Shown piece after piece: positions 47,389 through 48,973 of a stretch of DNA of 64,000 nt. The stretch spans positions 1,038,471 through 1,102,470 of the forward strand of contig OZ244071.1 of assembly GCA_965215555.1 (NCBI GenBank), given 5' to 3'. Positions within the stretch are counted from its first letter, which is position 1. Each line of letters opens with the position of its first letter. A program made the position numbers and the translations under genes. This stretch comes from Dehalococcoidia bacterium. Its GTDB lineage: Bacteria > Chloroflexota > Dehalococcoidia > Bin125. Under the pieces are notes generated by a model. The model was not told the DNA's origin and searched no databases. It worked only from the letters and a program-made list of their open reading frames with translations.

Positions 47389-48090
47389 ATGAGCCCTGAC
47401 GTGAGCCCCGACATGAGCACAGCCAATAGCACGGCAACGGCGCAGTACCGTTCGGTGATCTTCGATCTCGACGGCACGCTCGCCGACACCGAGCCGCTGG
47501 TCATCGGTTGCATGCTCGAGACGATCAACGCGCACGGCCATCCCGTCGACAAAGAGTTGCTGCTCAAGTACATCGGACCTCCGCTGCCGGTGATGCTCCA
47601 CAACATGCTCGGCCTCAACGCCGAACAGGCGCAGCCGATTTACTTGGACTACCTGCGGCGCTACGAGGACACCTACATGCCGCGTACGCGTCCCCTACCC
47701 GGCGCAGAGGCGTTGCTCGATGCGCTCCGCGAGGCGGATGTTCCGATAGCCATCGTGACGAACAAGCGCGAGGATGCTGGTCGCAAGACGGTCGAGCTGC
47801 TCGGTTGGACCGATCGCTTCGAAACAATCATCGGCGCCGACACCGCGAGCGACCCAAAACCGCATCCTGCTCCACTCATGCACGCGCTGGACATTCTCAA
47901 GGGAGAAGCAGAGACCTCGGCAATGGTGGGAGACACGGAATCGGACATGGGAGCGGGCAAGAACGCCAACTTCGCCGGGGTAATCGGCATCGTCGGGGTG
48001 AGAGATGACGAATACCTGCGCCGATTCGGAGCCACTCACACGGCTAGAAATCTTGCCTCAGTTCAACGTTTGCTTCTTGATACGGACTAG
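47389..48090 (+). CDS. HAD-superfamily hydrolase (phosphoglycolate-phosphatase-like)
   Basis: VIFDLDGTLADTE motif I, VTNK motif, GDTESDMGAGKNA motif IV. Confidence 0.75.
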   Translation: MSPDVSPDMSTANSTATAQYRSVIFDLDGTLADTEPLVIGCMLETINAHGHPVDKELLLKYIGPPLPVMLHNMLGLNAEQAQPIYLDYLRRYEDTYMPRTRPLPGAEALLDALREADVPIAIVTNKREDAGRKTVELLGWTDRFETIIGADTASDPKPHPAPLMHALDILKGEAETSAMVGDTESDMGAGKNANFAGVIGIVGVRDDEYLRRFGATHTARNLASVQRLLLDTD

Positions 48091-48527
48091 TCGGCGGCGG
48101 CCACCGATGGCGCCGTCCCTGACTCTGCTGCACCTTCTATCGGTCGCAACCGCGAAATTTCAAGAATGATCCAGGCCATCCTCGAAACAGCCTCAGGGAT
48201 CTCAGACAGCTCGAGACCGGGCATAAACACGCGTTGCTGATCCGCTTGCGCGCCGGCTCGTAGGGCGATCTCCGTTACCCGCTGCTTGGTTTGGTCGCTA
48301 ATCGGGTCCTCTAGCCAATGGAGCCGCCTTGATGTGTCCCAGCCATCCTCTGTGACTTCAAGACCGTCCTCGGTGATGAGCACGGTGATGTTGATTCCGT
48401 CACCGTTGTCTGTCCACCATTCACCAAAGACTTCGATGGAACCGTCCGAAGATGGCTCGAAGATGCTGTAGCAATCGGGCAGCACCTTCAGCAACTTGCG
48501 TCGCAGCTCGTCCGGGCTCATCGTCAC
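48087..48527 (-). CDS. Hypothetical acidic protein (146 aa), no recognisable family
   Basis: ORF only; ATGA overlap with the upstream gene; lower GC. Confidence 0.45.
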   Translation of the reverse strand: MTMSPDELRRKLLKVLPDCYSIFEPSSDGSIEVFGEWWTDNGDGINITVLITEDGLEVTEDGWDTSRRLHWLEDPISDQTKQRVTEIALRAGAQADQQRVFMPGLELSEIPEAVSRMAWIILEISRLRPIEGAAESGTAPSVAAAD

Positions 48528-48973
48528 ACCTTGTCCTCATTGGGCCACAGCATCTCGCCTACATGCACGATACCCAATAGATCACATAGCCATTCCCAAA
48601 CCTCTACTGGTTGGTTCCAACCAGGAACGCCACGGGGAAGGGGATGCGCTTCCGCTGCACCGGCGGCCGCTGACCACAGCTGTAGGTGAGCACCCTCAAA
48701 TCGCGTACCGCTCACGTTGCGATGGCGGATGTTCGACCCAAAGTCGATCCCGGCCACTCTTTCACCGACGACGATCAGTGATATCCCGAGTTTTCTCTTA
48801 CTGGGGCGGAAATATCCCTCCACCACGAGGTTGTCGTTTGTTTTCGACAGCACCGAGGCCTTAAACCACTTCGCATCGGAGTGTCCGCTTACCACAAGCC
48901 AGACGATGTCGCCGACGATCCGCTTTGAATCTTCGGCGAGGATTGCGTCGAACTCAGCCTGTGTTAGCGACAC
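48524..48973 (-). CDS. Hypothetical protein (149 aa), no recognisable family
   Basis: ORF only; starts 3 nt after the enoyl-CoA hydratase stop; lower GC. Confidence 0.45.
   Translation of the reverse strand: MSLTQAEFDAILAEDSKRIVGDIVWLVVSGHSDAKWFKASVLSKTNDNLVVEGYFRPSKRKLGISLIVVGERVAGIDFGSNIRHRNVSGTRFEGAHLQLWSAAAGAAEAHPLPRGVPGWNQPVEVWEWLCDLLGIVHVGEMLWPNEDKV

Follow-up and report, generated by a model that had tools for sequence, protein, structure and literature searches.

What is the pair of small genes that follows an enoyl-CoA hydratase (crotonase) gene in the genome of a Dehalococcoidia bacterium: an accessory to the metabolism of that operon, or a conflict module of the toxin-antitoxin (TA) or defense kind? 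We analyzed the pair in a 64,000-nucleotide (nt) stretch of contig OZ244071.1 (the window), using its list of open reading frames (ORFs) and the raw sequence. A preliminary description had placed two acidic ORFs at 48087-48973, could assign neither to a family, and suspected a new TA or defense module. As judged by profile comparison, the two genes, here called geneA and geneB, are very probably a Dehalococcoidia-specific variant of PDC-M24, a two-gene cassette in PADLOC in which a DUF6978 gene is followed by a DUF1828 gene; in the variant, the B protein has no C-terminal domain of approximately 135 residues. Both genes can therefore be placed, geneA as DUF6978/PDC-M24A and geneB as a truncated, DUF1828-like PDC-M24B. 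The best overall explanation is a co-translated two-protein conflict module, a PDC-M24 variant lodged in a crotonase operon, although we consider the case for it evenly balanced. The features of the locus, in window coordinates, are as follows.

48524..48973, minus strand: geneA, 149 amino acids (aa), GTG start, DUF6978/PDC-M24A, putative effector.
48087..48521, minus strand: geneB, 144 aa from ATG, acidic, short PDC-M24B with the N-terminal DUF1828-like domain only.
48087..48527, minus strand: geneB from an alternative GTG start, 146 aa.
48519..48527, minus strand: junction of geneA and geneB, GTG-TGA-CG-ATG on the coding strand; translational coupling by a GTGA overlap or across a 2-nt spacer before the ATG.
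48974..48979, minus strand: junction of the crotonase gene and geneA; TAG stop, 3-nt spacer, then the geneA GTG.
48090..48131, minus strand: C-terminal tail of geneB, residues 131-144, predicted to be disordered, ending A-A-A-D-COOH.
48977..49759, minus strand: enoyl-CoA hydratase (crotonase) upstream of geneA, Pfam ECH_1, E = 6.5e-57.
47281..48090, convergent to geneB: HAD-family hydrolase, its stop overlapping the geneB stop.

The geneA protein scored 30.7 bits against Pfam DUF6978 (PF22398; gathering cutoff 29.6), with residues 3-132 aligned to profile positions 1-130 of 133, and a PF22398 match is precomputed in all of its close homologues. It matched PADLOC PDC-M24A (PDLC04533) at E = 1e-21 over residues 3-145 of 149, and every relative tested matched the same model (E = 3e-25 to 8e-70). 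A word-indexed search of 5.8 billion proteins returned seven close relatives of geneA. A profile of geneA relatives reached at least 1,527 clusters at 90% identity, nearly all of approximately 152 aa and all DUF6978, and the named members were all annotated as 'hypothetical protein'. There was no match to geneA in NCBIfam or PHROGs. Residues that are invariant across phyla include K17, D22, W25, R72, D77, G79, H84, N86, H96, W100, C130 and H137, and the Asp/His/Asn/Cys pattern among them would fit a catalytic or metal site. A recent preprint describes a putative metal site formed by the conserved histidines of DUF6978. Two readings of the geneA sequence, as a His-Me/HNH nuclease (from its H-x-N...H spacing) and as a carrier of meaningful 'DFG...HRN' strings, were rejected; neither had fold or profile support.

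The co-occurrence that the preliminary description had proposed to check extends across phyla. A scan of species-representative genomes yielded 17 loci, with full-length A in 15 and downstream sequence present in 14. A partner gene lay directly after A on the same strand in all 14 assessable loci, and a 4-nt overlap of A and B was computed in 13 of the 15 full-length loci. The same overlap was read from gene tables at L007, at L010 (partner gene at 6453..6884) and at four further loci from metagenomes or metagenome-assembled genomes (MAGs), among them Thermogemmata and Nitrospiraceae, in which a 152-aa A is followed by a 258-aa DUF1828 protein. Counting the 14 loci from the scan, four metagenome contexts and eight close relatives, there was no assessable locus in which A lacked a B directly behind it on the same strand. 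These loci span at least six phyla: Chloroflexota, Pseudomonadota, Desulfobacterota, Cyanobacteria, Nitrospirota and Planctomycetota. The pairing of A and B is thereby shown to be obligatory and translationally coupled across phyla. The length of the partner was 139-146 aa in Dehalococcoidia and 259-262 aa outside it (in Pseudomonadales, other Gammaproteobacteria, Casimicrobiaceae, Ectothiorhodospiraceae, Desulfomonilaceae and a cyanobacterium).

The geneB protein itself had no match in Pfam, PADLOC (E ≤ 10), NCBIfam or PHROGs, and none of the short B proteins, that of the window included, rose above threshold for Pfam DUF1828 (PF08861). The word-indexed search returned ten close relatives. 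An exhaustive HMMER search of 1.84 billion cluster representatives with the geneB profile found only six clusters at E ≤ 1e-3, so the short family is very rare; in a whole-library search the profile reached another short B, P0021, at E = 5.6e-6. Homology between short and long B emerged only once divergent Dehalococcoidia members were added to the alignment. The narrowest alignment, of 11 close relatives alone, was not significant against long B (E = 0.066), whereas hhalign aligned a 19-member short-B alignment with seven long B proteins at 95.8% probability (E = 8e-9, 123 columns), placing short B on residues 1-125 of long B. Without the bridging sequences the match was 84.9% (E = 6.4e-6) and the register did not change. 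The short partner at L013 matched the PDC-M24B model directly (E = 5e-7, profile positions 23-122), and the short B of L014 and P0021 did so more weakly. Because of the bridging matches of L013 and P0021 and the hhalign register, geneB is, by alignment, the N-terminal, DUF1828-containing half of PDC-M24B, without the C-terminal domain of approximately 135 residues.

The long partners matched PADLOC PDC-M24B at approximately 1e-105 to 1e-110 and Pfam DUF1828 at approximately 1e-13 over residues ~31-121. Their C-terminal domain is highly conserved, with the invariant motifs GRSG, FH, SSLV and SLFDDT, and searches of Pfam, NCBIfam and the PDB linked it to no effector family, nucleases included. 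In NCBIfam and PHROGs, long B matched only phage families of unknown function. Neither the short-B nor the long-B profile had a significant match in a sequence search of the PDB, and Pfam found no DUF1829 in either form.

Several details of the locus differ from the preliminary description, which had the two genes overlapping by ATGA. The coding strand at the junction reads ...AAG GTG TGA CG ATG AGC..., so that the two genes overlap by GTGA or, if geneB starts at the ATG at 48521, are 2 nt apart. This ATG, 2 nt past the geneA stop, is the more likely start of geneB than the GTG at 48527, because most homologues have 144 aa (beginning MSPDEL) and AAGG lies approximately 8 nt upstream of it. The coordinates of the ORFs held, and geneB is indeed acidic (isoelectric point 4.35); geneA is only mildly so (5.9). 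The 3-nt distance from the crotonase stop to the geneA start was also confirmed, as TAG, three nucleotides and GTG. A scan for promoters and terminators found no promoter-like or terminator-like site at this junction, and for that reason the crotonase gene and geneA are likely to be co-transcribed. The GC content of the pair had been called clearly lower than that of its flanks. The dip is real but modest: 0.575 compared to a window mean of 0.612 (standard deviation 0.029), which puts the pair at the 11th percentile among equally sized windows, with GC at third codon positions of 0.63 in geneA and 0.68 in geneB versus 0.82 in the crotonase gene and 0.72 in the HAD gene.

The neighbors of the pair in the window are the crotonase, an MFS transporter, an SDR, the HAD hydrolase and a CNNM protein. 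Approximately 3 kb from the pair, at 44757..45428, the window encodes a 223-aa DUF3800 protein (Pfam E = 9e-15; PADLOC DUF3800_VII E = 3e-8). It lies in an islet of GC 0.50 (44598-45753) with tRNA-Asn at 44598-44673 (plus strand) on one side and tRNA-Gln and tRNA-Leu at 45588-45753 (minus strand) on the other, and the islet has the appearance of a short segment inserted at a cluster of tRNA genes. A DUF3800 gene is found at the equivalent place in L005 and L015.

We compared the pair between relatives to determine whether it is maintained. The ratio of nonsynonymous to synonymous substitution rates (dN/dS, Nei-Gojobori method, relatives versus the window sequence) was 0.14-0.34 for geneA, with a value of 0.74 at the lowest divergence (L009, dS 0.06), and 0.07-0.32 for geneB. 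For the adjacent crotonase of the same genomes it was 0.02-0.08. Because homologues exist, dN/dS is mostly 0.07-0.34 and the AlphaFold2 models are confident, geneA and geneB are real genes and not chance ORFs. The pair can also be lost. At L025 (contig OY820591.1, 5990-6110), intact crotonase and HAD genes are separated by only approximately 100 nt. The remnant between them consists of A codons 1-22 followed by a stop, and of the B C-terminus '...TEFAAD*' abutting the HAD stop; it is the scar of a clean internal deletion of the cassette. The same contig also carries the divergent L014 copy of A with a short B, near an MmeI/Eco57I-like methylase and a PIN gene. The pair is thus under purifying selection, evolves several-fold faster than the crotonase, and is dispensable. 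These properties fit a conflict or accessory gene set.

The missing half of B, the deletion at L025 and a frameshifted B at L011 could all be taken to mean that the pair is a decaying remnant of a PDC-M24 cassette, no longer functional with its truncated B. We consider this very improbable, since the frames are intact in many genomes with dN/dS of 0.07-0.34 at dS >1, and since short B keeps a stable length (136-146 aa), a conserved tail and a compact, confidently predicted fold. The tail is a terminal AAAD (AAD or ASD in some), present in nearly all short B proteins, that of L014 included, after a variable disordered linker. Because it is kept in L014, whose neighbors differ, the motif is a property of the protein itself and does not simply follow from overlap with the HAD gene. 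The tail could be a docking or turnover signal, although its terminal Asp is at odds with the LAA-COOH rule for ssrA-like degrons. The long PDC-M24B proteins are likewise Ala-rich at the end (…LAEAA, …LARAA). As for L011 (6453-6908), the MAG it comes from (CAXXUV01) has the locus twice, on separate contigs, L012 (6453-6884) being the other, near-identical copy. The L011 geneB departs after residue ~82 into an unrelated 151-aa frame, suggestive of a frameshift; it could be a pseudogenized copy, a strain variant or an assembly artifact.

The surroundings of the pair in other genomes, identified by Pfam scans, are given below for relatives outside the crotonase arrangement of the window.

L016: HsdS and HsdM directly upstream of A-B.
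L017: HsdM, then HsdS-A-B, then HsdR.
L018: HerA-like ATPase and HsdS, then A-B.
L019: AAA_13 ATPase upstream of A-B.
L020: Eco57I-type methylase near A-B.
L023: HsdM, an MNT-type nucleotidyltransferase (Pfam), a HEPN-like ORF (by reading), A-B, HsdS (from sequence), HsdR.
L027: HsdM, PIN, then A-B-HsdR.
L028: PLD/SNF2 helicase and MmeI/Eco57I methylase upstream of A-B.
L029: MmeI/Eco57I methylase and ParE/Phd upstream of A-B.
L014 (Dehalococcoidia, short B): 911-aa MmeI/Eco57I-like methylase and a PIN gene.
L026 (5536-9671): no restriction-modification (R-M) genes; P450 upstream and CoA-transferase downstream of a canonical pair.
L022 (470-7235): a Desulfomonilaceae MAG, no R-M genes; a canonical pair approximately 120 nt after a beta-oxidation operon.

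The pair has HsdM, HsdS or HsdR at its flanks or around it in L016, L017, L018, L023 and L027, and MmeI/Eco57I-type methylases lie beside it in L014, L020, L028 and L029. By the embedding or adjacency that defines PDC-M24, the pair is associated with R-M genes in L016-L018, L023, L027-L029 and L014, but not in the window. The frequent position of the pair between hsdM/hsdS and hsdR raises the possibility that PDC-M24 regulates, assists or guards its host R-M system, and that the Dehalococcoidia copy is a drifted orphan. There is a precedent in PrrC of EcoprrI, which is almost exclusively embedded in type I R-M (bioRxiv 10.1101/2024.01.29.577857). We regard this explanation as quite unlikely: the pair has no R-M neighbor in the window, L022 or L026, the R-M systems that adjoin it elsewhere are of several different types, which argues against a specific partnership, and the orphan copies are still under purifying selection.

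Other conflict genes occur near the pair. HicA/HicB-type TA genes were found within approximately 5-8 kb of it in the related Dehalococcoidia L005 (167-460), L006 (12021-12236), L007 (1-191 and 12677-13194) and L013 (11756-12303). L013 additionally has an OLD-like TOPRIM protein (9373-11097; weak match, E = 1.7e-4) in a low-GC stretch. The wider neighborhood therefore holds accessory and conflict genes.

The preliminary description had stressed the position of the pair behind a crotonase gene, and this is true within the lineage of the window. All close relatives (A 60-99% identical) have the order crotonase, A, B and convergent HAD gene, with a CNNM-family gene beyond. In the more distant Dehalococcoidia L011, L012 and L015 an Amidohydro_2 gene lies between the crotonase gene and A; in L013 there is a 78-nt gap and no Amidohydro_2; and in L014 the short-B copy is displaced from the crotonase slot, so that the association breaks there. 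Outside this part of the lineage, crotonase linkage is limited to L022, where the operon consists of an acyl-CoA dehydrogenase, a thiolase and, at its end, a FadB-like gene with a crotonase domain. This second, independent case of the pair after a crotonase-domain gene is probably due to chance. Linkage is absent in L014, L016-L020, L023 and L026-L029.

A housekeeping role in the crotonase operon, with B as a regulator of the YbjN/AmyR/DUF2170 type and A as a small enzyme or ligand-binding protein, would account for the 3-nt spacing without intervening promoter or terminator signals, for a gene order kept down to approximately 60% A identity, for the metabolic neighbors in L022 (beta-oxidation operon) and L026 (P450 and CoA-transferase), and for the best structural match of B, a DUF2170 operon regulator. 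Even so, we find it improbable. The linkage is missing at most other loci, the amidohydrolase intervenes in three of the Dehalococcoidia (L011, L012, L015), L014 has the pair in another place, L025 has deleted it but kept the crotonase intact, and the pair evolves several-fold faster than the crotonase. On our reading, what sits at the 3' end of the crotonase operon is an accessory gene set with no part in crotonase metabolism.

A second crotonase in the window had been offered as a parallel. This gene is followed after 3 nt by a small ORF, as described:

63048..63920: second crotonase, then the 106-aa ORF after 3 nt.
62724..63044, minus strand: 106-aa ORF, no Pfam match.

The arrangement is as claimed, but the ORF (62724..63044) is unrelated to geneA or geneB (hhalign probability <1%), which likewise speaks against a crotonase accessory; by this comparison the recurrence is not a homologous pattern. 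Nearby, at 62161-62484 on the minus strand, is a DUF433 protein (E = 2.7e-22). DUF433 proteins are often antitoxin-like partners of PIN-like DUF5615 toxins.

If the pair is a conflict module, how might it work? The AlphaFold2 model of geneA has a predicted local distance difference test score (pLDDT) of 89, and its profile had no significant match in a sequence search of the PDB; on the model, the fold is confidently predicted and has no PDB relative. The geneB model has a pLDDT of 82 (below 50 for residues 131-144) and the fold of type III secretion system (T3SS) chaperones and YbjN-like proteins. It has the chaperone fold of T3SS class I chaperones (CesT family), and its best structural match is a DUF2170 operon regulator, although sequence identity with T3SS chaperone, YbjN, AmyR and DUF2170 structures is just 6-13%. 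Members of this fold group are small acidic proteins that act by binding partner proteins.

We tentatively propose, at somewhat less than an even chance, that A and B form a complex in which A is the effector and B restrains or regulates it, giving TA-like or abortive-infection defense. Co-translation would supply A and B in fixed proportion, and the two would form a complex. A is probably a metal-dependent effector or toxin, possibly a hydrolase, because its Asp/His/Asn/Cys cluster is invariant across phyla. B probably binds A and keeps it inactive, because it is small and acidic and its predicted fold is also that of some immunity proteins, of T3SS chaperones and of YbjN proteins. A would then be set free by a trigger, for instance an infecting phage or the loss or titration of B, with a toxin-antitoxin-like or abortive-infection outcome. 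A bolder version, which we rate as rather doubtful, holds that DUF6978 is a toxin with a PDB-novel fold and a His/Asp/Asn/Cys metal site, neutralized by a T3SS-chaperone-like partner, that the two constitute a new TA or abortive-infection family, and that the Dehalococcoidia pair is its natural minimal core. If this were true, the C-terminal domain of the partner would be dispensable for the toxin-neutralizer core, and might be only a sensor or a module for coupling to R-M.

The roles could also be the reverse. The C-terminal domain of canonical B might be the effector, with DUF1828 regulatory and A a sensor or regulator; the Dehalococcoidia pair, its effector lost, would now have some other role, for instance in regulation, as a decoy, or in neutralizing related systems in trans as an antitoxin-like remnant. 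The sole large difference between the variant and canonical forms is indeed these ~135 residues, which are highly conserved in long B, while the fold of A yields no enzymatic assignment and proteins like long B are found in phage protein families too. We nevertheless think this arrangement unlikely. The invariant polar cluster of A is kept in the short-B lineage, A is under purifying selection there, which would be unexpected if it only controlled a lost domain, and the C-terminal domain of long B matches no effector family (Pfam, NCBIfam, PDB).

A number of points weigh against the proposal of a conflict module with A as effector. The PDC-M24 label is itself a candidate one, given by embedding, and a literature search found no experimental defense or toxicity test of a PDC-M24, DUF6978 or DUF1828 protein; in the literature searched, DUF6978, DUF1828 and DUF1829 had passing mentions only, except for DUF1829 in the validated DS-6/HipAD. 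Because geneB has no direct match to the PDC-M24B model, PADLOC would not call this system. The geneA fold has no solved relative, and therefore no chemistry can be assigned to it. If the missing domain of PDC-M24B is the true effector, the short variant cannot work as proposed. Most type II TA operons have the opposite order to that seen here, where the putative effector precedes its partner, and no DNA-binding domain was detected in B. Across deep divergence the pair has been passed on stably in a single chromosomal slot, which is less typical of mobile defense genes, and a tblastn search of plasmid and phage collections found no homologue of geneA. Finally, no R-M genes adjoin the pair in the window (ORF list and Pfam).

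The suspicion of a TA or defense module therefore stands in part: it gains from the candidate family, the pairing across phyla and the R-M-linked relatives, but the module is neither new nor without a family. Of the two findings that would have refuted it, neither was made: the pair recurs in other genomes and shows no homology to a metabolic accessory protein. PDC-M24 is one of 145 defense candidates proposed solely from embedding in other immune systems. The window holds a rare natural variant, in which half of the partner is lost yet the pair is intact and under selection outside any defense island. The short pair is thus a ready-made domain deletion: should it prove toxic and neutralizing, or protective, the core lies in DUF6978 and the chaperone-like domain, and otherwise the effector is the domain that is missing. 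Because the geneA fold has no PDB relative, solving its structure or finding an activity would add new information. With the variant, Dehalococcoidia join the lineages that have candidate defense genes, and standard tools would overlook the system there. Before a function is shown, the practical importance is modest.

Comparison with known systems places the pair closest to PDC-M24, which is cassette CAS_00098 (FAM_00129>>FAM_00065, listed count 153) of Payne et al. (bioRxiv 10.1101/2024.01.29.577857). In that study, the PDC cassettes were those embedded in BREX, DISARM or type I R-M, curated to 145 candidates, and only the Hma-embedded candidates were tested experimentally. The R-M neighborhoods of our relatives match this definition. 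FAM_00065 (PDC-M24B) is also listed behind another upstream family (FAM_01408>>FAM_00065, 15 instances) and in a three-gene cassette, FAM_00129>>FAM_00065>>FAM_00027 (supplementary table 8 of the same preprint); the DUF1828 partner may thus be modular and able to pair with different first genes. The window pair resembles PDC-M24 in the match of geneA to PDC-M24A, in having A>>B tightly coupled on one strand, and in the similarity of geneB to the N-terminal DUF1828 half. It differs in that geneB has 144 aa compared to approximately 258 aa, with no C-terminal domain and no match to the PDC-M24B hidden Markov model (a ~256-aa profile), and in that the pair lies at the end of a crotonase operon and not in R-M, BREX or DISARM. 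It is chromosomally stable within one Dehalococcoidia lineage, and PDC-M24 is itself a candidate.

The DUF1829 domain commonly co-occurs with DUF1828 in Pfam. In HipAD/DS-6, a validated type II TA system used in abortive infection, a toxin kinase has a non-HipB partner carrying DUF3037 and DUF1829 (PMC13092281). Because Pfam finds no DUF1829 in PDC-M24B, this system is an analogy and not evidence. Like type II TA systems, the window pair consists of two small, adjacent, translationally coupled genes, with a predicted acidic protein-binding fold in B and a predicted catalytic-looking site in A; it is fast-evolving and present or absent between relatives, and its family is associated with defense loci. 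Unlike them, it has no helix-turn-helix, ribbon-helix-helix or AbrB domain in A or B (Pfam, NCBIfam), and the putative toxin gene comes first.

The predicted fold of geneB is that of T3SS class I chaperones (CesT, SicP, ShcA, Spa15) and of the YbjN/AmyR/DUF2170 group. In contrast to T3SS chaperones, geneB matches neither CesT nor another chaperone family in Pfam and has no secretion genes nearby, so the modeled likeness is one of fold and probable binding mode and not of family membership. PrrC, the anticodon nuclease of EcoprrI, shares with canonical PDC-M24 a position between hsd genes, but there is no similarity of sequence or domains, and PDC-M24 is also found without R-M, as in the window. 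Set beside these systems, the pair is a new and rare variant of a known candidate cassette and nothing categorically new.

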